Virus record (IMG/VR): IMGVR_UViG_2609459790_000001
Coordinates: 1-38,270 of that record
Direction: 5' to 3' (one strand)
Source: a virus
Taxonomy: Duplodnaviria > Heunggongvirae > Uroviricota > Caudoviricetes
DNA: 38,270 nt
Part shown: in pieces, positions 2,813 to 37,725 of the stretch
How the letters are laid out: the number at the start of each line of letters is the position of its first letter
Position numbering within the stretch: position 1 is the first letter of the stretch
The notes under the pieces: model-generated
Database searches by the model: none
What the model saw: the letters and a program-made list of their open reading frames with translations, nothing else
What the model was told of the DNA's origin: nothing
Position numbers and translations under genes: made by a program

Positions 2813-3465
2813 CCTTCACAGTTGTAATCACTACAGCCTTCAAAATCATATGGGTTGTACTGCCAGGTGATTTTTCCGCAATGCGGACAATTCCAACGCA
2901 CCTTCCCGCTTCGCGACTTCTTTCTTCTGTTCTGCTTTTTCAACCAGTCAGGCATGACCAAACCTGCGCCCTGAACCATTGTTCTGCGGTTAAAGTTATT
3001 GATATTGAACGTCAGGCGCTTTGCTGAATCAGCAATGGAAAATGGCAACCAAACTATTCCTGGTTCGTTTTTGTTGGCGACGCTAAAGATGGTCGCTTTA
3101 CTGAAGTCATCTGTTGGCAATCCACCGTGTTGAAGCCAGTAAACATCGTTGCCGTTCCAGCTACCTTTTTTGTAGGCCACATACGCAGTGCAATCTGGCT
3201 CAATCAGGTTTTCTGTAGGGATGTACTGGCAATCAACGTGCCACACAGCCATTGCATCCACGCTATCAGCGCAAACAGGCTGATCGATATCTCGACCACA
3301 ATTCCAGGCTTTTTGGGCTTCTTCCAGCGTGTAAACATGAGCGCGATCGATATTAGAACTGTAACCATTGCCGTTATGGCAATGGAATGAAGCGTTATTA
3401 CCCACAGTTTCACGCAAGCACATCATGTAAAAGCGGTTATTCACTGGCTGCCTCCTTTGCGCCAC
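2800..3465 (-). CDS. Hypothetical Cys/His-rich protein with C-terminal zinc-ribbon-like motif (CPHCGK ... CSDYNCEGW)
   Basis: 221 aa ORF, non-ATG (GTG) start in the track, overlaps ea22 start by 13 nt suggesting translational coupling; no family recognised. Confidence 0.55.
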
Positions 3466-3604
3466 ATCGCATTCAGATATTTGTTTTGATTCACTGAAGG
3501 AAAAGAATTTCTTTTAAGCAATTCCTCTCTCGATGGCATTGGCTTTACGCGCTGGCGAATAATCATTTCTGCCGGAAGAATGCCGGGATTGTATGCAAGT
3601 CCTC

Positions 3605-3886
3605 TCATGATTTACTCTCCACGAACTGGTCAATAGCCATGCTAAGTGACACACCTAAAGTCTCGATATGCTGCTGAATATCCTGTAGCGTATGCGCCTG
3701 AGATAACAGGATTTCACGGTTGCATAACTCTTTAACCAGATGCTCAAACTTGCTGTAATAACCGATACGACTTAGTGTTTCTTTGCCTGCATTCTCGCCT
3801 TCTTTGATAATTCCTCTTTCGCTAAGAATCAGATCGTGTTTTGTTCCAGTAATAACGTATTTGCCGAGGTCGATGTTTAGCTTCAT
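3605..3886 (-). CDS. Hypothetical protein
   Basis: 93 aa ORF in same orientation and tightly packed in the leftward early operon; no family recognised. Confidence 0.55.
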
Positions 3887-3902
3887 TGTTAATTACTCCA
3901 TG

Positions 3903-4217
3903 TTAATTTATTCGTATGCCTGCTCTTTCTTCATCGAGTTTTTTTAGCTTGTATCGCATAGCTCTTACTGAATAAATTGAGCGGCAGGTTGCAATTGCTA
4001 TTTCTTCTGCGGAGAACTTACCGAAAAGTGATACTTCGGCTCTTGTCCATCGTCTTCCACGAAGTCGGCTAACAATGTCAGCGCCAATCCTTGTTGCTTT
4101 TGCCATTACTGCTTTTTCAGTCCTTTCCAGTTTTTCAGCGATAACTTCAACTGGCATTGTCGCCGCTACTTCGCGCAAGAAATCGACTTCCCATTTCTCC
4201 CATGGAGTCTTTTTCAT
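3903..4217 (-). CDS. Hypothetical protein with two W-x-x-E-V helix-rich repeats (possible DNA-binding)
   Basis: 104 aa ORF; internal duplication of a W..EV..L...IA motif visible in the translation; function not established. Confidence 0.55.
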   Translation of the reverse strand: MKKTPWEKWEVDFLREVAATMPVEVIAEKLERTEKAVMAKATRIGADIVSRLRGRRWTRAEVSLFGKFSAEEIAIATCRSIYSVRAMRYKLKKLDEERAGIRIN

Positions 4218-4228
4218 AGTCGATACCG

Positions 4229-4717
4229 TTATTTGATAAGAAGTGAAGGTTTCCCAACTTTGAGTTGAGCGCCGGGGATATTTATTCCTGCTTTTAGTTG
4301 GTGCTTGATTGCCAACTTGTCGGCTTTAATTGTCGTTTCGAACTCAACGTATTCAGGAGGAAGGGCGCTTGAGTCGATGATTTCTACAATTTCTGACGGT
4401 TTGCGGATTGTTACCTGGTGAATACCTGCTCGAATATTTTTCTTGCCAACCATTTCAAGCGATGACGCTATATATGATTTGATGCTGTCAATCTTATTTT
4501 GAATTACTGCGGCTCGCTCATTCAGTGACTTTGCCTCTTCCTTGAGGCGTTCAGCATAACCAGATTCATTTTTAATGACGGAAAGAAGTTGCTCTATTTT
4601 ATCGGTAAATTCTCCTTCCATGCCTTCTATTGTGTCAGCAATCATCTCTGGTTCTAAATCTGAATCCATCAATTTTGCGTATTCATTGGCAATTTCATAC
4701 AGTTTGCTCACTGGCAA
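4229..4717 (-). CDS. Gp157-like protein (siphovirus Gp157 family), recombinase-associated
   Basis: 162 aa, coiled-coil rich, immediately downstream of the RecT-family gene with overlapping start/stop; pattern matches remembered Sipho_Gp157 family members that accompany RecT/Erf in phages. Confidence 0.55.
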   Translation of the reverse strand: MPVSKLYEIANEYAKLMDSDLEPEMIADTIEGMEGEFTDKIEQLLSVIKNESGYAERLKEEAKSLNERAAVIQNKIDSIKSYIASSLEMVGKKNIRAGIHQVTIRKPSEIVEIIDSSALPPEYVEFETTIKADKLAIKHQLKAGINIPGAQLKVGKPSLLIK

Positions 4718-5606
4718 CCTCCAGTTTCGCTTTGCATTCTATGTAAATGGCTTGTACGTTCTGCTGCAATTCCATTCCAGATGTCAGGCGATATGCTTCT
4801 GCAAAATATCGCTTCAAATCATCCATGTTTTCTGCCTGAGCCATTTCATCGCAAAGAAGTTGTACTTTATCCATTATTTCCTGCTGGCGTTTCCGTTCAT
4901 CTTCGCGGATATCTTCCTCTGATTTGTGCGGCATAACTGGTTCAGTCCACACACCTTCTTCTTCGTTTAGTACGTGAATAGCACTATCAAGACGTGATGC
5001 CTTAGGCCAATACTTGCTTGCACGCTTTACGACCGTCTTTCGCGCCATCTCATTCCAGTGATTTACCCATGGTCCTTTATCGCTGAATGCTGCCTTGCTT
5101 GTTTTCCTTACAGCCTCAATTTCAGCCAGACTCATCTCTTCCGTTAGATAATCACCTGCCGGCGTCTTAACTGTGCAGTAAACGCCAACGATATCACCAC
5201 GATCACCGAAGGCGTTGTATTTATGGGTTGGTGCTTTATCAAGCCCGTTTGACTCATAGGTATCGTTAGCATGAACAAGTTTTGCCTGACCCCATGAGAT
5301 AACACCAGACTCCATTGCAATATGGAGCAATCCCATATAGCTGATATCAAGGCAAACCATGCCGTCGCGAGGAACCAGATAAGCCAGTTTGCTGGCAGGG
5401 TTTAAGGTGATGCCGATCGCCGCAACATTGATGATGGCGTTCTGTGCGCTGGTTGGATTTGCCAGTGCCGTTTTAGCCAGGTAATCATTTTTCTGGAAAT
5501 ACTGAATTGCAAACTGGCTTTCCTTAGCCCATGTCACCGTCTGTTCAGTCAATGCTCCGCAGAATAACTGCTCTTGCTGTTTAACGAATTCAACGATATT
5601 GCTCAT
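4695..5606 (-). CDS. recT: RecT-family single-strand annealing recombinase
   Basis: 303 aa; the segment GPWVNHWNEMARKTVVKRASKYWP aligns to the conserved GPWVTHWEEMAKKTAIRR motif of E. coli RecT. Confidence 0.85.
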   Translation of the reverse strand: MSNIVEFVKQQEQLFCGALTEQTVTWAKESQFAIQYFQKNDYLAKTALANPTSAQNAIINVAAIGITLNPASKLAYLVPRDGMVCLDISYMGLLHIAMESGVISWGQAKLVHANDTYESNGLDKAPTHKYNAFGDRGDIVGVYCTVKTPAGDYLTEEMSLAEIEAVRKTSKAAFSDKGPWVNHWNEMARKTVVKRASKYWPKASRLDSAIHVLNEEEGVWTEPVMPHKSEEDIREDERKRQQEIMDKVQLLCDEMAQAENMDDLKRYFAEAYRLTSGMELQQNVQAIYIECKAKLEVASEQTV

Positions 5607-29847: not shown

Positions 29848-31212
29848 ATGGCTACGTGGCAACAGGGTATTAATTCTGGTGGTTTTCTGGCTGGCATCGG
29901 TACGCAAAATGAGAATGCGCCAAAGGCAAGCGACATTAACGCAACGCTTGGTCTGATCCGCGAAAACAATGAACTGGCTCGCTCAGGTGCAAATAACGTT
30001 GGTCTGACCGCGTTACGTGGTCTGGCTGGAGTTGCTGATATTTATAAGCAGGAACAGCAACAGAAAGCGATTAATGCGTTCAATAAGGTTCATGCTGATG
30101 CATGGGCTTCTGGTGATCCATCGGGACTATTTAAGTTTGCCAAGGAAAATCCAGCGTTTGTTGCGCAGGCACAACAGGCGTTTTCCGGTCTTAATGAGCA
30201 GCAACGCAACGATATGGGCGATTTAGCCATGAGGGCTAACGTCGCTCTTTCTCAGGGACCGGAAGCCTACAGTAAATTCATTACTGACAACAAGGACAGG
30301 TTAAATCGTGTGGGTGCGAATGCTGACTGGATGATTCAGACAGGTATCCAGAATCCAGAGCAGCTATCACACATGCTGACTACTATGTCTCTCGGTGCGC
30401 TTGGACCAGAAAAGGCGTTTGCTGTTCAGGACAAGATGGCTGGTCGTGAAATTGACCGAGGCAGACTGGCAGAGACAATCCGCAGCAATCAGGCTGGCGA
30501 GGCGCTAACAGCGCGTGGTCAGAATATCACGATGCGCGGTCAGGATTTATCGATGCAGAGAGCATCAATGAAAGGGTCGGTTGGGAATAATGAGCGTACA
30601 GTTCAGTTAGCAGATGGCAGAACTGTAACGGTAGGCGGGAAGCTTCACGGCGCTGGGGCTAATGCGTTCTACGAAGGTATCGACAACGAGGGGAATATGG
30701 TTCGCGTCCCTGCTGGCTCTATTGCCGCTCCGGCTACATCGGCAGCAAGCGCGCAGAATTACGCAATGAAGAAAGATCTTGATGCAATTTCTGGTGCATC
30801 AATTGACGATCTTGGCTTCATGACTGGCATTACAGGCTCTTCAGGTTCTCCTGCTCTTGGTGCAGATATTCGTAGCCGTGCATCTGGTGGTGATCAGAGG
30901 AAACTATACAACGCTGCACAGCGAATCCAAGGAAAGATGCAGAATCAGGGCATTGCAGCAGCCAGAGACATGGGGGCATCCGGTATCAACACCGTTGCAG
31001 AAGCAAAGATGTATTTTCAAGGTATGCCACAGGTTGATTTCTCAAGCCCTGAAGCACTGCAACAATCAATGCGCGACATTCAGCAATATACCGACAATTA
31101 CAACCAACAATATAACGTTAATGTTGGTAAATCTCAGCGGCAGCAATCTCAACCTACACAGGTATCACAGCCAGCAGCCAGCAGTAACTTTTCTTCACTA
31201 TGGGGTGATTAA
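29848..31212 (+). CDS. 20: Ejection protein (P22 gp20-like)
   Basis: 454 aa in the gene 20 position. Confidence 0.82.
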
Positions 31213-33077
31213 TGGCTAAAGCATGGAAAGATGTTATCGCCTCTCCACAGTATCAGGCGTTAACTGAAGAACAGAAAGCACAGGCTCAAGCGCAATATTT
31301 TGATGAGGTTGTTGCCCCTAAGGCTGGTGACAAATGGGCTGAAGCAAGAGATCAGTTTTATGCAGCATACCCTCCGCCTCAGCAGCAGAAAGAAGAACCA
31401 TCATTGATGCAACAAGCTGGTGATTGGCTCACAGGTGGTCAAAGTGCAGGGCAAATTGCAGAGCAGGCTGGTCGTGGTCTGGTAAACATACCATTCGACG
31501 TATTACAGGGCGGCGCAAGCCTGATTAATGCAATCAGCCAGGGGCTTGGTGGCCCCAAGGTTTTGGATGATGTTTATCGTCCAGTCGATCGACCGACAGA
31601 CCCTTACGCGCAAGCTGGTGAAACAATTGGCGGGTATTTAGTTCCAGGAGTTGGAACGGCAGGAAGCATGGCTATTGGATCACTGGCAGAGGCCGCAAAT
31701 CAGAAAGGCGATTTCGCACAAAATGCAACTAAAAATGCCGGAGTTAACCTTGCCGCTCAGGGGGTTCTTTCCGCAGCAGCAAAGGGAATAGGGCGTGGAA
31801 TTACTGCTGTTCGTGGCGAAATATCACCAGCAGATCAGCAATTGCTCAAGCGTGCCGCTGCGGCAGATGTACCAGTTATGACATCGGATGTAGTTCCTCC
31901 AAAAACAAAACTTGGCAATCAACTGCAGGGTTACTCAGAAGGAGTCATAGCTGGGACTGGACCAATGAGAGCCGCACAGCAGGATGCTAGAACCAAGCTT
32001 GTTAATCGCTTCACCGAAAAATACGGCGACTACGATCCATCTGTAGTCGTTGATAGTCTAAAGTCAGGCGTTGCAAGGGAAAAATCGTTAGCCAAGTCAA
32101 AACTAAACAACCTGTCAGGAAGAATGGTTGGAAAGCCAGTTGATACAAGTGGCGCCATAAGAGCTATCGACGGAGCAGTAAACGAACTTGGGAAACTTAA
32201 AGGTGTTTCTGACACCCAGACCATTTCTGCGCTTAATGATTATAAGAATGCCATTCAGGAGATAACAAATGGAGATGATGCCTTTGAGTTACTTGATAAG
32301 CTGAGAACTCAGTTCCGCATTGACGTAAAAGGCGATCGTACAGTTCTGCCATCAATGTCGCAAACAATGGTCGACAGGGTCTACAACTCGCTAACCAATA
32401 GCCTTAGTAAATCTATAGCGAAAGGACTTAGCCCAAAAGATGCTTCAGCATGGAGAGCGGGAAAAGCTGATTATGCAAAAATGGCAACACATGCAACTCA
32501 AACGCGCCTTAAAAACGTTCTAAACAAAGGAGATTTAACTCCCGAGGCTGTAAATACCATTGTGTATGGACAATATGGGTCAGATATAGCTCGATTGTAC
32601 GGGAAACTCGATCAAAAAGGTAAAGACATGCTAAGGGCGGCATATATCAGCAAAATAGCTGACAAGGTAGGTGACAGCCCTCAGAAAATGATGACCGAGC
32701 TTGGCAAGCTGCAAAAACAAGCAAATGGTCAGGTGTTTAAAACTGTATTTGGTGGGAAGAACGGAAAAGAGATAGAGGGGATGTTATCTATTCTCGATGC
32801 TACCAAAAGAGCATCTGAGGCTAATGTTGTGACGAAGACTGGCATGACACTCGCGCCTTTGGTAAGGGTTATTGGTAACCTAAAAACCGGAGGCGCGCTA
32901 TTGGCTGGGGAAACAGGGATTGGCCTTATGTCGAGGGTTTATGAAAGCCCTATGGCCAGGAATGCGCTCTTACGTCTGGCAAACACCAAAGCAGGAACAC
33001 CAGCCTATGAAAGAGCGCTAAATAACGCTGCGAATGCCATCAGACCGCTGTTTGCCACTGAGGCAACACAGCAGTGA
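31212..33077 (+). CDS. 16: Ejection protein (P22 gp16-like)
   Basis: 621 aa in the gene 16 position, last gene of the rightward morphogenesis block. Confidence 0.82.
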   Translation: MAKAWKDVIASPQYQALTEEQKAQAQAQYFDEVVAPKAGDKWAEARDQFYAAYPPPQQQKEEPSLMQQAGDWLTGGQSAGQIAEQAGRGLVNIPFDVLQGGASLINAISQGLGGPKVLDDVYRPVDRPTDPYAQAGETIGGYLVPGVGTAGSMAIGSLAEAANQKGDFAQNATKNAGVNLAAQGVLSAAAKGIGRGITAVRGEISPADQQLLKRAAAADVPVMTSDVVPPKTKLGNQLQGYSEGVIAGTGPMRAAQQDARTKLVNRFTEKYGDYDPSVVVDSLKSGVAREKSLAKSKLNNLSGRMVGKPVDTSGAIRAIDGAVNELGKLKGVSDTQTISALNDYKNAIQEITNGDDAFELLDKLRTQFRIDVKGDRTVLPSMSQTMVDRVYNSLTNSLSKSIAKGLSPKDASAWRAGKADYAKMATHATQTRLKNVLNKGDLTPEAVNTIVYGQYGSDIARLYGKLDQKGKDMLRAAYISKIADKVGDSPQKMMTELGKLQKQANGQVFKTVFGGKNGKEIEGMLSILDATKRASEANVVTKTGMTLAPLVRVIGNLKTGGALLAGETGIGLMSRVYESPMARNALLRLANTKAGTPAYERALNNAANAIRPLFATEATQQ

Positions 33078-33094
33078 CTAAATGCCATGGATGG

Positions 33095-33307
33095 TTATTT
33101 CCCTAGCACATGAAACAATGTTTGCTTTAATTCCACCCATACAATTATGACCACTATAGACAGACAAAAGAAACTGAATGCATTGGCATCACGATCGAAA
33201 CCTTCTCCGGCACTAAATCCGTAAAAGGTCATAAAAAATATAAAAATTGCGCACTTTGCAACGTTTACAAATTTTTTCTTCACACCAACCTCCTTAGTTT
33301 TGAGCAT
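33095..33307 (-). CDS. Hypothetical small membrane protein (weak call)
   Basis: 70 aa ORF with two hydrophobic segments; no clear ribosome-binding site. Confidence 0.3.
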   Translation of the reverse strand: MLKTKEVGVKKKFVNVAKCAIFIFFMTFYGFSAGEGFDRDANAFSFFCLSIVVIIVWVELKQTLFHVLGK

Positions 33308-33336
33308 GACGAAATTAACCAGCCATCAGGCTGGTA

Positions 33337-33519
33337 TTAGTCACATTCTATTTCTTTTGTCGAGGTCCATACATAAGGGTCTGAGCAAACAACCTCACCA
33401 TTTATCATGACGTCATAGCCCATTAGATATGAGTTACCACCAACAATCTGAGCGGCTATGACGCTAATGCTGGCGGCGCAGGCTGCACCAAAAACGAAAC
33501 CAATTAATATATTTTTCAT
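33337..33519 (-). CDS. Hypothetical small exported/membrane protein
   Basis: 60 aa ORF with N-terminal hydrophobic signal-like segment [23 protein letters not shown] and two Cys. Confidence 0.45.
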
Positions 33520-33541
33520 TTTAATTCCAAATAGTTATAGG

Positions 33542-33736
33542 ATGAAAGTTATGACCATAGAAGAACGTCTGAACAACATTGAGTTAAACCAAACCCTGCT
33601 TGACCAGCGCCTTTCAGATCTTGAGCTTAAAGATCTTGATGCGCAAATATCAGAAGCAGAAGCCAAGCTCTCCAGCTTAAACCACCGTAAGAAGCAAATC
33701 CGCAATAGAATTACTCAGGGACGCGGAAGTTGTTGA
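33542..33736 (+). CDS. Hypothetical small coiled-coil protein
   Basis: 64 aa from the ATG at 33542 (MKVMTIEERLNNIELNQTLLDQRLSDLELKDLDAQISEAEAKL...). Confidence 0.45.
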   Translation: MKVMTIEERLNNIELNQTLLDQRLSDLELKDLDAQISEAEAKLSSLNHRKKQIRNRITQGRGSC

Positions 33737-33745
33737 AATCATAGT

Positions 33746-34063
33746 CTATTTTTTCTCAGAGCTCATATTGTAATAGGTGGTATAAATAGAGATTGATTTC
33801 TGACATGCTTCAAGAAATTGCTGCGGAGTCATCCCAAGCCTTGCTTGCTCTGTAGTAAGGAATCTCTGTAAGAATTCATTCCCACCCGGCATGTTTGTAG
33901 ATTCTTGGAATATTGCCATTTGTTTGATTGCACCACACATACCAGCCATTTTCGAAGCTATCATGAGGCCTTGTATTTCATCAAAACTGCTATCGTCTGA
34001 TTTTGTTTCTGCGTTAGCTATGCTCGAGAGACACAGGAGCAATAGGATAGCGATACGTTTCAT
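33746..34063 (-). CDS. Hypothetical secreted protein co-transcribed downstream of mnt
   Basis: 105 aa with classical signal peptide MKRIAILLLLCLSSIANA; start overlaps the mnt stop (ATGA). Confidence 0.65.
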   Translation of the reverse strand: MKRIAILLLLCLSSIANAETKSDDSSFDEIQGLMIASKMAGMCGAIKQMAIFQESTNMPGGNEFLQRFLTTEQARLGMTPQQFLEACQKSISIYTTYYNMSSEKK

Positions 34064-34311
34064 TTTTCACCATTGCCATGCATACATTTTAACTTCTCAA
34101 CATCATGCTCAAGCTCTATCAGTCGCGATGCTATAGTTGCAAGATCTAGTGCTTGAATGTGTTTGTTTTTTTCGGTCCATGCTTCAAGTGCTGCGACCAT
34201 CTCAGCATTTAATGAACGAGAATTAGCCTCAGCCAGTTCAATAAGACGTTCCTTTATCTCTACAGGAAGCCTCAGATTCACTTGAGGGTTTTTGTACTTA
34301 CGATCAGACAT
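34060..34311 (-). CDS. mnt: Mnt-like ribbon-helix-helix repressor (immI region)
   Basis: 83 aa, same length as P22 Mnt, N-terminal RHH motif VNLRLPVEIKERLIELAEANSRSLNAEMVAALE; divergent from arc-ant. Confidence 0.8.
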   Translation of the reverse strand: MSDRKYKNPQVNLRLPVEIKERLIELAEANSRSLNAEMVAALEAWTEKNKHIQALDLATIASRLIELEHDVEKLKCMHGNGEK

Positions 34312-34340
34312 CGGCGCATCCTGAATAATTTTTTACCACA

Positions 34341-34404
34341 GGATATGTAGGTATCTATTGACTATCAATGCGTACCTAAATACTATGTATGCGTACCACA
34401 TACA
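34341..34404. promoter_or_regulatory. immI control region: Pant promoter with Arc/Mnt-type operators
   Basis: TTGACT (34358..34363), 17-nt spacer, TACTAT (34381..34386); palindromes AGGTA...TACCT around the -35 and TGTATG...CATACA over the -10/+1. Confidence 0.6.
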
Positions 34405-34415
34405 AAGGAGCAAAA

Positions 34416-34562
34416 ATGAAAGTTAAGACATTAAGGATGCCAGAATGGCTGGAAAAGGCTTTGGAGCAGTCCGCGAAAAAGGATGATCGGTCGTTCAGTA
34501 ATGAGGTATTGAGGAGACTAAAGGAGTCAGTAGCTAAGGATGGAATTGTTTGTCCAGAATGA
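34416..34562 (+). CDS. arc: Arc-like ribbon-helix-helix repressor
   Basis: 48 aa ORF not in the track (MKVKTLRMPEWLEKALEQSAKKDDRSFSNEVLRRLKESVAKDGIVCPE) with AAGGAG ribosome-binding site, between mnt and ant. Confidence 0.7.
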   Translation: MKVKTLRMPEWLEKALEQSAKKDDRSFSNEVLRRLKESVAKDGIVCPE

Positions 34563-34628
34563 GTAAAGCCCAAGCTATTGCGAGTAGCTCGGGCTTAAAT
34601 CGCCAGTAAATTTTGAGGAAAAACTGAC

Positions 34629-35558
34629 ATGAAAAGTATAGCAACAGCAGTATCTACTATCAACGTGCCATTCCACGGCGAAGAGCTTTATGTCGTCAAT
34701 CACAACGGTGAGCCGTACACCCCAATGAAACCTATCGTTGAAGGTATGGGTATGGATTGGGCTTCACAGTTTACGAAAATAAAGCAACGGTTTAAAACCT
34801 CCATTGTGAAAATCACAATGCAGCTTCCTGGTGATGAACAGTGCCGTGAGATTATTTGTTTGGCACTTCGCAAACTTGCTGGCTGGCTGCAAACCATCAG
34901 CCCTAACAAAGTCCGCCCTGAAATCCGCGACAAGGTAATCCAGTATCAGGAAGAGTGTGACGATGTGCTCTACGAGTACTGGACTAAAGGCCATGTAGTT
35001 AACCCACGCAAAGCTAAAAAGGCGTTGCTGGGTAAAATCACCACTGAACAGCAGGAAGCCATTAAACAACTCGTCATGAGTCGCGGTCAGTCTCTGCCAA
35101 AAGAAAAACAGGCGAAGGCGATGATCACCATGTGGTCGTCACTGAAATCCCATTTTGGATGTTCGTACAAAGAAATCAGTGAGGAGCAGTTTACCGAAGC
35201 ACTGTCACTTGCAGCTCGAGTTCCACTTGAAGGTGAGTTCATTGGCAAACAAGAGAAGAAGACCAACGATCTTTCTGCAAAAGAAGCAAACAGTCTTGTA
35301 TGGTTATGGGATTATGCCAACCGCTCACAGGCATTATTCCGCGAACTGTATCCGGCGCTAAAACAAATTCAATCGAACTATTCCGGCAGATGCTACGACT
35401 ACGGTCATGAGTTCTCGTATGTTGTCGGAATGGCGAGAGACGTTTTAATCAATCACACACGAGATGTTGATATTAATGAGCCAGACGGACCAACGAATCT
35501 TTCCGCATGGATGAGACTTAAGAATAAAGAATTACCTCCTTCAGTACATAACTACTGA
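34629..35558 (+). CDS. ant: Antirepressor Ant
   Basis: 309 aa ORF in the position of P22 ant (300 aa) immediately downstream of arc; called from gene order and size, not from recalled sequence identity. Confidence 0.88.
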
Positions 35559-35658: not shown

Positions 35659-37725
35659 ATGACAGACATTACAGCCAATGTGATTGTATCGATGCCTTCG
35701 CAACTCTTCACTATGGCGCGTTCTTTTAAAGCCGTAGCCAATGGCAAAATTTATATCGGTAAAATTGACACTGACCCGGTAAATCCTGAAAACCAGATTC
35801 AGGTTTATGTAGAGAGTGAAGATGGTTCTCACGTTCCTGTTTCGCAACCAATCATCATTAACGCTGCTGGTTACCCTGTATATAACGGACAGATTGCCAA
35901 ATTCGTTACCGTGCAAGGCCATTCTCTGGCTGTTTATGATGCGTATGGTGCTCAGCAGTTCTATTTTCCTAATGTGCTTAAGTATGACCCTGACCAGCTA
36001 AGACAGAAGTTAGATGGTGTTGGTGGGGTTAATTTAGTAAATGGGGCATTACATGGTGCCATGGATTCAGATCCAAATGTTGGTTTTAAAATCACCACAT
36101 CCTCAGGTGAGATTTACGAATATGCTCCGGGAATTACAGGTCTTGCCGATGGGTTTTCGGTATCAGCATCACAGTTATATTTAACAAGGAATGGCCTATC
36201 TTATAAATACTCTTCACCTCATAACACACTGGTTTGGCCATCTCAGTATATCGATACGAGTGCTGATGCGAAATATTCAATTGAATCTATTATGGCGCAC
36301 GGATTGAATGTGGACCTTAACGGAACTACAGTAAAAGCCAGCACCATTAATATTACGAAAGATTTGATTAATGGTGAAATTGTTGCTATCGGAGATGAAG
36401 GATCATTTATAACAGTAAACTCATGCATGCTTAACAATATTAAAGTTAACTGCAATATGATGGCAATTAGAAGGCCTGTTCATATCAAAACAGGGGCTGT
36501 TAATCCAGTAGTTAAGAATGTTGATGTTTTTGATAGTAATGGTTCTCAACTAACTTATGGTATTTTCATAGATGCAAATTCTGTATTGAATTTTGTCGTT
36601 GATAACATATCAATACATAATATTACCACCATTGGAAATGGTATTCAGATTGATGTAATTGGGCCATGTCGAGGGGTTATTGTAGGAACGGCACTTGATC
36701 CAGTACCATCAAATGATGATGAGGTATCAAGTGGAGTTATAAGTAACGTAAGGGTTTACAAGCTAAACCCTTGGGAAGATGCTGATGGTGTTGTTATTCA
36801 GATTTACAACTCATCATCAAATATGCTCAGCGGGAAGAAAATAAAGGTTGATGGCGTTTATACTTACAATGCACTTAAGCGAGCAGTTAAAGTTCAGGCC
36901 AATGATGTTACAGTAACAAATGTATTTGCGGTTTGTGATGACGCCTCAGCAACTAACCCTATGTATAGTTGTGTTAGTGTTTATGGTAGTTCCTGTGTTG
37001 TTCGTGGTGTTAGTGGGCGAGGAAGGATTGGCAATGGTGTTGATTCATCTGATGGGTTCAATACTATCAGTGATGTTTATCTTAAGACGACAGCAACCTA
37101 TGAGCTAAGCGCAGGTCTACAGATAACTTCCGGGCAGGTAAACGCGAATAACATTCACTCTGAAGGATCAAGATACATAGTCGCAATTCGGGCAGTTAAT
37201 AACACAACACCGTATGTAAATATTAATGGCATATATGGGCAAGGTTATGACGGGGCGATTTTGTTAGAAATCAGATACGGATTTAATATTGGTAATGTTT
37301 ACTTAAGTGATATTTCAGTATCAAGTTCAAATCCCACAAGGTCTTCATTCTTCTTTGATATATTATCAGGTGGAATGATATCTCTTATCAGCGTGTCAGA
37401 CGTCAAGAGAATCAGTCAGGCATATAACGGACCAGATATAAACATTTCTGGTGGGGTTAAAAAAGCTATTGTTAAAAATTCAGTTTTTGAGAGTGGTTCG
37501 TCAAGCATTGGTGTATCAATGGCAACTGGTACTTTAGTTGCATCAAATATATCAGCACAAAGTAAATCTTATGCTGTCAGCGCTACACAAACCACAAATT
37601 CACTTATAAATAACATTGATGGAATCGTTAGGGTTGATAGCACAACCAACAGTAATGTCGGCCTTTACAGAGGGATTACCCCTGTTGGGACTAACACAGG
37701 ACTGAAAACTGTTTTCTATATATAA
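35659..37725 (+). CDS. 9: Tailspike protein: HK620/P22-type N-terminal head-binding domain fused to a divergent beta-helix receptor-binding domain
   Basis: N-terminal ~115 aa ([52 protein letters not shown]...NVLKYDPDQ) matches remembered HK620/P22 tailspike; the remainder is AT-rich and differs from both. Confidence 0.92.

Follow-up and report, generated by a model that had tools for sequence, protein, structure and literature searches.

What do P22-like phages carry where P22 carries its superinfection-exclusion gene sieA, and could the genes found there also act against incoming phages? We examined this question in a 38,270-nucleotide (nt) stretch of viral DNA (positions 1 to 38,270 of IMG/VR record IMGVR_UViG_2609459790_000001; hereafter the window), a P22-like (Lederbergvirus) prophage of Escherichia coli with a late region that matches phages such as APC_JM3.2, IME10 and UPF_BP1. 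In P22, the interval that follows gene 16 (rightward) contains sieA (leftward, with its own promoter), a gap, the mnt terminator, orf59a (leftward) and mnt (leftward). The equivalent interval of the window contains four small open reading frames (ORFs), here termed A to D from left to right. Our tentative reading, to which we give somewhat less than an even chance, is that the four are cassettes of the 'ant moron', that A, B and D encode envelope proteins read leftward, that A, and less surely B and D, block entry of phage DNA, and that C is a separate gene.

The interval is known as the 'ant moron' of P22-like phages. It is described in two papers as very variable and as holding the immI region and genes of unknown function (PMC2629481, Villafane et al. 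2008; PMC8022706, phage L), and sieA is present in 22 of the 66 sequenced P22-like phages, most of which lack it (PMC10883804). The variability of the region and the absence of sieA from most of these phages are thus already known.

Four small genes between gene 16 and mnt

We found no sieA in the window. A tblastn search of the whole window with P22 SieA and a search of all six frames for the motif FxRYPxEAxxFNK returned no homolog and no motif, and none of A to D matched phrog_7745 (SieA-like). Conversely, tblastn of A to D against the P22 locus gave chance matches only (E > 0.4, as for SieA against the window). The first-pass annotation of this DNA had proposed two small hydrophobic proteins on the minus strand, a coiled-coil protein on the plus strand and a 105-amino-acid (aa) signal-peptide protein translationally coupled to mnt, none of them SieA-like. 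All four ORFs lie where it had placed them, in the context it gave, and its descriptions hold. ORF A has two hydrophobic segments, and B and D have N-terminal signal-type segments; no hydrophobic segment was found in C, the coiled-coil protein. The D start codon overlaps the mnt stop codon in the sequence ATGA. Even A, with 62 aa and two segments, differs from SieA, which has about 160-190 aa and three to four segments.

Each ORF matches a small PHROG family, of unknown function (E values of 1e-44 to 1e-70): phrog_21338 for A (E 3e-45), phrog_37095 for B (E 2e-46), phrog_7586 for C (E 4e-44) and phrog_19844 for D (E 1e-69). Scans of Pfam, NCBIfam and PADLOC yielded no match above threshold for any of the four. 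Among related loci, variable sites fall at third codon positions in 7 of 8 cases in B, 18 of 28 in C and 46 of 82 in D. The 28 variable sites of C comprise 20 synonymous and 8 non-synonymous sites in its own frame, with at most 8 synonymous sites in any of the other five frames. On these patterns, the four ORFs are real, conserved genes under purifying selection. It is very improbable that some of them are non-functional leftovers of recombination, as the high mosaicism of the region, the lack of annotation of A in RefSeq and the presence of at least 80% of the whole 1.28-kb stretch in only 10 of 5426 complete E. coli genomes might suggest. Besides the third-position and synonymous bias, the mosaic joints lie exactly at ORF ends, every copy has its own ribosome site, and homologs at 50-80% identity keep their length and key residues.

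The full arrangement is present in E. coli HCM-26C-1 (NZ_AP038241, 1859413-1860691). Singly, the genes are found more widely in the same set of 5426 genomes: A was detected in 89 of them, C in 113, and B and D in 36 each. Related prophages hold them in varied combinations: C and D without A or B; A, C and D with other genes replacing B; B and C with a different gene after mnt (Kapi1); and C alone (Emek). Similarity between these prophages breaks at ORF borders. The genes are present in some and absent from other syntenic relatives, and their composition differs from that of their surroundings (GC 0.40 in 33078-34059 against 0.466 for the window), as expected of morons. As to the promoter and terminator that a moron may own, D shares Pmnt by coupling, A lacks the TGGTATCCT core described below, and no strong promoter precedes B. 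From these comparisons we conclude that the 1-kb stretch is a set of four independently exchangeable single-gene cassettes within the known 'ant moron'. The first-pass picture of an envelope-targeted cluster therefore survives for A, B and D as targeted proteins, and fails for C, which is cytoplasmic, and for the notion of one cluster.

Table 1. Positions of the genes and elements considered here (numbering of the window).
Feature	Position	Strand	Description
Gene 16 homolog	31212-33077	+	621 aa; ejection/DNA-transfer protein; 44% identity to P22 gp16 over 440 aa
ORF A	33095-33283	-	62 aa, GTG start, 7.1 kDa, pI 9.1; occupies sieA slot
sieA-type translation-start element	33281-33306	-	TGCTCAAAACTAAGGAGGTTGGTGTG; AAGGAGG ribosome site, 5 nt, GTG
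Hairpin	33318-33335	-	ACCAGCC-UGAU-GGCUGGU then UAAUUU; 7 bp, GC-rich; between B stop and A ribosome site
ORF B	33337-33519	-	60 aa; N-terminal hydrophobic helix; invariant C-terminal peptide with two Cys
ORF C	33551-33736	+	61 aa; coiled coil, basic tail; late-operon strand, convergent with D
ORF D	33746-34063	-	105 aa; signal peptide MKRIAILLLLCLSSIANA followed by E (site ANA/E); second gene of mnt operon
mnt	34060-34311	-	83 aa; Arc/ribbon-helix-helix repressor; PF03869 E 3e-10; 42% identity to P22 Mnt N-terminus
Pmnt-like site	34368 to 34340	-	TTGATA-17-TATCCT, consensus scan
Pant-like site	34358 to 34386	+	TTGACT-17-TACTAT, consensus scan
arc	34416-34562	+	48 aa; ATG behind AAGGAG; PF03869 E 2e-5
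sar-like antisense RNA	34562-34628	-	between arc and ant; Rfam RF00262 full length, sub-threshold
ant	34629-35558
Tailspike gene	35659-37725

ORF A and the sieA slot

ORF A stands in the place of sieA and behind a translation-start element of the sieA type. The 22 nt CAAAACTAAGGAGGTTGGTGTG, which end in the start codon of A, are identical to the 22 nt that end in the start codon of P22 sieA. The P22 counterpart of the start element in Table 1 lies at 1829-1857 of locus L059 (P22, BK000583). A longer reading of A from ATG 33307 (70 aa) was rejected, because GTG 33283 lies behind a perfect AAGGAGG and all full-length Salmonella and Serratia homologs have 62 aa. The protein begins with an N-terminal KKK and has hydrophobic segments at residues 8-18 and 35-53, joined by a short conserved loop, GEGFxRDxN. 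This suggests an inner-membrane hairpin of two transmembrane helices with both termini inside. No feature is annotated over A in the three E. coli RefSeq records listed, nor under any of its four phage matches (phiv205-1, two records of UPF_BP1, and JEP4). The 'orf62' of phage L was considered as a homolog and rejected, as A has only three relatives among isolated phages and neither L nor ST64T is among them.

To survey the slot, we scanned IMG/VR for the exact 20-nt core of the element (at least 119 stretches) and added the loci found by D-family homology. An ORF starts at the GTG of the element in at least 134 loci, and these ORFs belong to at least 13 unrelated families (Table 2). Because the loci were sampled by D homology and start element, the family counts are biased and are lower bounds. 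An N-terminal hydrophobic segment is present in 12 of the 13 families listed, SieA included, and SieA alone among the 13 has a functional name in PHROGs or Pfam. Among the 116 loci that are long enough to show it, 112 have a long gene 16-like ORF that converges on the slot ORF and ends less than 200 nt from it, which implies that the slot holds exactly one gene. The position after mnt also has alternative occupants. The D family and the 129-aa signal-peptide family occur in both slots, since both are found after mnt and behind the sieA element, and B lies either after mnt or in front of that element.

Table 2. Proteins encoded behind the sieA-type start element and directly after mnt. Counts in the sieA slot are biased lower bounds; those in the post-mnt slot are biased by how the loci were collected.
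Slot	Family	Length (aa)	Loci	Remarks
sieA	Membrane anchor + coiled coil	107-109	at least 22
sieA	Signal-peptide protein (Emek orf129)	129	at least 19	Emek record notes similarity to Sf6 gene 38
sieA	ORF A	62	at least 15
sieA	Second membrane anchor + coiled coil	109	at least 14
sieA	SieA	164	at least 12
sieA	Two-helix protein	75	at least 10
sieA	D-family protein	99	at least 10
sieA	Anchored protein	103-106	at least 9
sieA	Soluble protein	140	at least 8
sieA	Multi-helix protein	116	at least 6
sieA	Anchored protein	149	at least 4
sieA	YobH-like protein	68	at least 4
sieA	Single-helix peptide	42	at least 1
Post-mnt	D		28	ATGA overlap in all; behind at least 3 different mnt alleles
Post-mnt	69-aa protein	69	22
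Post-mnt	178-aa protein	178	16
Post-mnt	Two-helix protein	77	6
Post-mnt	Signal-peptide family	129	1
Post-mnt	B homolog			Citrobacter prophage; ATGA overlap

The survey also bears on SieA itself, whose start codon is uncertain (162 or 164 aa; PMC10883804). That at least 13 unrelated families begin at the same GTG, five bases after AAGGAGG, argues for this GTG, and thus for the 164-aa reading.

Upstream of the element, CAT(C)TGGTATCCTGC is all that most loci have in common before they diverge into at least eight sequences. Within the shared stretch we read TGgTATCCT as an extended -10 promoter core; the P22 GenBank record puts the putative sieA promoter slightly further upstream. In P22, 85 bp of upstream DNA together with sieA suffices for exclusion, and sieA is transcribed at a low level in lysogens and more on induction (PMC10883804). 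The sieA-type promoter core, TGGTATCCT, is present in most other loci and absent upstream of A in the window. Wherever B lies upstream of the element (the window and loci L001, L042 and L160), this core and the P22-type sequence upstream of it are replaced by the end of B and a hairpin. The 76-nt stretch holding the hairpin folds at -22.2 kcal/mol (z -3.7). The hairpin failed the U-tract rule of the intrinsic-terminator scan and is possibly a weak terminator or an attenuator.

ORFs B and C

The N-terminus of B comprises 20 hydrophobic residues with a conserved (V/I)AA, and cleavage is possible after VIA or IAA; we predict a signal peptide or an anchor. Its 14 clusters share invariant columns. 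The GenBank note on Kapi1_060, a B homolog 98% identical to it, gives a DeepTMHMM signal at residues 1-22. The AlphaFold2 (AF2) model of B, with a helix at 2-27 and a beta hairpin, is poor (predicted local distance difference test (pLDDT) score 60) and unfit for a fold search. In a Citrobacter prophage, a B homolog directly follows mnt with an ATGA overlap. Comparison with the P22 locus led us to reject two candidate homologs of B or C, namely P22 orf59a and the P22 gap that runs from PsieA to the mnt terminator. A lipoprotein of the Llp/Cor/Ltp type was likewise rejected by eye for B, as FGAAC has G at -3 and the hydrophobic helix continues past it.

ORF C begins at ATG 33551 and not at 33458 (92 aa), as similarity to more than 20 prophages starts at this ATG and ends at the stop codon. 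It occurs in four unrelated upstream contexts, each with its own ribosome site, and its protein is 97-100% identical across more than 20 mosaic prophages with wholly different flanks (e.g. L003, L011, L015 and L044). In several prophages C directly follows a rho-independent terminator, AACCCACCGTCAGGTGGGTTTTTT (L004, 2481-2504). The label XhlA (PF10779), given to C homologs in the Kapi1 and RefSeq annotation, stems from the over-long 92-aa reading, which overlaps gene B; C scored 14.1 bits against a cut-off of 34.7 and lacks a membrane anchor. A 56-aa ORF antisense to C (33535-33705, minus strand) is a shadow ORF. It crosses the module border and shares wobble positions with C. In every antisense frame, 20-26 of the 28 variable sites alter the encoded protein, so that the substitution counts speak against selection on it and it should not be mistaken for a gene.

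Being cytoplasmic and encoded on the late-operon strand, C is probably a lytic-cycle gene. We consider it probably a separate late-strand gene for a cytoplasmic coiled-coil protein, outside any exclusion function. One could extend this to the whole stretch and assign all these genes to the lytic cycle (virion assembly, injection, lysis timing or tailspike expression) and not to the lysogen. No other piece is as conserved as C, which in some phages lies directly behind a terminator passable only by antiterminated late transcription, and P22 sieA is upregulated on induction (PMC10883804). This extension is nonetheless improbable, as A, B and D are read against the late operon and D is coupled to the gene of a repressor that maintains lysogeny.

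ORF D, a member of a large periplasmic family

Mature D has 87 aa, a pI of 5.0 and two invariant Cys, and is predicted to form a three-helix bundle (AF2 core pLDDT 82-92). The GenBank note on a Kapi1 family member that is 47% identical to D also gives a DeepTMHMM signal peptide. A lipoprotein (Llp/Cor/Ltp type) was rejected by eye for D too, since LLL precedes C11 and the family does not conserve this Cys.

A word-indexed search found only 11 close clusters of D, and a profile search over 1.84 billion representatives was used for distant members. The latter returned 256 representatives (50% identity) at E <= 0.001 and 167 at E <= 1e-10, nearly all of about 100 aa among the matches listed. An alignment of 51 sequences has an N-terminal hydrophobic, signal-type segment and the core AK..G.CG...QM..FQ..TKM.GGDEF..RF..TE.ARLG......C......Y, in which G41, C43, F52, Q53, E72, R75 and C87 are invariant. 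The family extends across Proteobacteria. Its named members belong to Pseudomonas fragi and Vibrio fluvialis, and further loci are from Yersinia, Pseudomonas, Methylophaga, Nitrosomonas, Oceanospirillales, Chromatiaceae and a Bdellovibrio-like genome. We looked for D homologs on plasmids and found none. The family has no Pfam model, as a scan of the 51 members gave only scattered single chance matches. The D profile matched no sequence in the Protein Data Bank (PDB), and fold searches of the PDB and BFVD returned nothing beyond generic helical hairpins. Comparison with known lysozyme inhibitors, periplasmic chaperones and immunity proteins likewise showed no likeness to D in sequence or fold.

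Outside the P22-like phages we found no conserved neighbour of D. In prophages of other kinds it tends to lie beside a repressor gene, following one of Arc type in Yersinia-type prophages and near one of S24 CI type in a Pseudomonas-type prophage. A few loci have other neighbours. The D-family gene of Pseudomonas monachiensis lies about 400 bp upstream of a gene for an LRAT/NlpC-P60-type protein (L051, 4932-6280), a single case. In one Yersinia-type prophage, likewise a single case, it is followed by genes for a 105-aa Cys-rich signal-peptide protein and a 141-aa protein (L026, 4001-5356), the latter TonB-C-terminal-like by eye. In a Nitrosomonas metagenome-assembled genome, repeated peptide-like ORFs (GSARPHGRARIET...) that resemble a translated CRISPR array lie upstream of the D-family gene (L057, about 3000-4800), with cas1/cas2-like genes in the vicinity; the association is probably coincidental.

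Expression and possible function

Consensus and terminator scans of the minus strand from the D stop to the A start found no promoter of at least 9/12 and no intrinsic terminator. Because B and the hairpin have replaced the promoter core and the strand offers no other promoter or terminator, a single leftward transcript is the simplest model. It would start at Pmnt and run through mnt, D, the antisense of C, B and the hairpin into A. D would be translated as the second gene of the mnt operon by way of the ATGA overlap, and A would be expressed behind the ribosome site and GTG that P22 uses for sieA. The first-pass proposal that these genes are expressed from the prophage thus gains from the analogy with P22, in the start element before A and the coupling of D to mnt, and loses from the missing promoter core.

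Since the slot gene varies among at least 13 families, 12 of which have an N-terminal hydrophobic segment, a role at the level of the envelope and expressed by the prophage is the natural reading. We infer from this setting that A, and less certainly B and D, may act in the envelope of the lysogen to keep superinfecting phages from delivering their DNA. The site of action would be the inner membrane for A, as for SieA or T4 Imm, and the periplasm for B and D. The context supports A, B and D as candidates for superinfection exclusion, and most strongly A, a predicted inner-membrane protein in SieA's own socket in a prophage that lacks sieA. The support for D and B comes from position, namely their place in the mnt operon and their interchange with slot genes. 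A bolder version is rather unlikely as a whole: that the start element is a hot-swap socket, that most of its at least 13 occupants, A included, are distinct blockers of DNA delivery, and that D is the first of a widespread periplasmic anti-phage family encoded beside repressors.

Several observations weigh against an exclusion role. The promoter core expected before A is absent in the window, and the hairpin there could end transcription ahead of A. None of A to D has sequence similarity to SieA of types A, B or C, or its motif FxRYPxEAxxFNK. PADLOC-DB 2.0 has no match for A, B or D and only weak coiled-coil matches for C, to PbeC and JetC. One slot family, of 140 aa, is soluble and some occupants of the post-mnt slot appear to be cytoplasmic, which indicates that the slots are not reserved for envelope functions; the family counts also carry the sampling bias noted above. 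As for D, its occurrence far beyond P22-like phages weakens the case for specific targeting of P22-type injection proteins. Strong conservation of its central motif extends from Escherichia to Pseudomonas, Vibrio, Nitrosomonas and the Bdellovibrio-like genome, among unrelated neighbours. This is more in keeping with a conserved host target or a general one than with phage injection proteins, which evolve fast.

This deep conservation, which argues for a conserved target and not for P22-type ejection proteins, makes a non-phage role of D a serious rival. A, B and D may be lysogenic-conversion factors that aid the host through its envelope and have nothing to do with phage entry, a proposal that we regard as on the unlikely side. 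In the periplasm, D or B might inhibit or bind some conserved enzyme or ligand, for instance a cell-wall hydrolase, a secreted toxin or a metal, and A might serve as a small regulator of some membrane protein. The breadth of the D family (256 representatives), its sporadic and solitary occurrence, and its invariant polar Q53, E72 and R75 and two invariant Cys across distant bacteria fit such roles, as do the LRAT/NlpC-P60-type protein about 400 bp downstream in the one Pseudomonas locus and the two other signal-peptide proteins after D in the Yersinia-type prophage. The adjacency to a hydrolase-like gene is a single case, however, and the absence of sequence or fold likeness to lysozyme inhibitors, periplasmic chaperones and immunity proteins speaks against conversion, as does the slot itself, whose sole characterised product is an exclusion protein.

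Alternatively, one or more of the small hydrophobic proteins could be a membrane toxin held in check by the prophage, as part of an addiction or abortive-infection module and not as an entry block. The short, two-helix membrane protein A would suit this. In Kapi1 (MT813197, locus L060, 30414-33571), 'hyp19' could not be deleted, and plasmids carrying its flanks were toxic in non-lysogens, for which a flanking hypothetical gene was blamed (PMC8787464). By count, hyp19 is probably the gene 16 homolog Kapi1_058, the downstream flank of which holds a D-family gene and a B homolog. The Kapi1 prophage is also lost at an unusually high rate (PMC8787464). We consider a toxin quite improbable, since the identities of hyp19 and of the toxic gene are deduced and not stated in that paper, the plasmids used were high-copy vectors, A, B and D have no conserved antitoxin-like partner beside them, and SieA in the same slot is non-toxic at single copy (PMC10883804).

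Should the exclusion reading hold for even a few of the slot proteins, they would be new and very small entry-blocking proteins, and probes of how the gp7/gp16/gp20 conduit crosses the envelope. For the approximately two thirds of sequenced P22-like phages that lack sieA, the slot now provides a candidate list of at least 13 families of about 40-165 aa each behind one start element. D marks a large, unnamed periplasmic family without structural or functional precedent. If phages are unaffected by these genes, the region would represent ordinary moron shuffling.

Flanking genes and the immI region

The gene 16 homolog is labelled 'DNA transfer protein' in near-identical records, and its end forms the left border of the variable region. 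To the right, the Pmnt-like and Pant-like sites are divergent and overlap (34340-34386), in the layout annotated in P22. The arc gene had been listed as a 57-aa ORF from ATG 34389 (34389-34562). It probably begins at ATG 34416, because ATG 34389 precedes the predicted start of Pant transcription, AAGGAG lies before ATG 34416, and the RefSeq arc coding sequence in a 100%-identical locus has 147 nt (the 48-aa form). The sar-like RNA occupies the same position as P22 sar; its match to RF00262 (29.3 bits, E 0.004) is below the gathering score of 43. Just upstream of it, at 34663 to 34635 on the minus strand, is a promoter-like site (10/12, with TG). Taken together, the immI control circuit of mnt, arc, sar-like RNA, ant and divergent promoters looks complete.

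Comparison with known systems

The interval studied here is the same very variable one, with immI, that the 'ant moron' papers describe; in their accessible parts, families A to D, the shared start element and the range of genes behind it are unmentioned (PMC2629481, PMC8022706). Our literature search found no description of the four families, of the unannotated gene A, of the ribosome-site/GTG socket with its occupants or of the size of the D family, and a search by protein accession and PHROG number gave no match.

ORF A resembles P22 sieA in several respects. It lies in the same slot, directly after gene 16 and convergent with it, behind an identical ribosome-site/GTG element; it encodes a predicted membrane protein; and it has the prophage-side orientation, read against the late operon between genes 16 and 9. 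It differs from SieA in size and topology (62 aa and two helices against 164 aa and three to four helices) and, in the window, in the missing promoter core. B and D have an N-terminal segment only, and C has none.

T4 encodes two small entry-block proteins, Imm in the inner membrane and the helical Spackle in the periplasm. A is broadly comparable to Imm by description, and not by sequence, in being a small membrane protein. D is likened to Spackle by its signal peptide and small helical periplasmic domain; no homology or shared fold with Spackle was found. T4 is a lytic phage, whereas A and D are prophage cassettes.

The antiviral hotspots of P2-like phages and P4-like satellites have a fixed position and conserved borders, between which unrelated accessory genes replace one another. 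The sieA slot is likewise a fixed position in a temperate phage with interchangeable genes. It differs from these hotspots in that defence activity is known for one of its occupants only, and in that the unit exchanged is a single small, mostly membrane or secreted protein, which shares with its alternatives even the ribosome site and the start codon.

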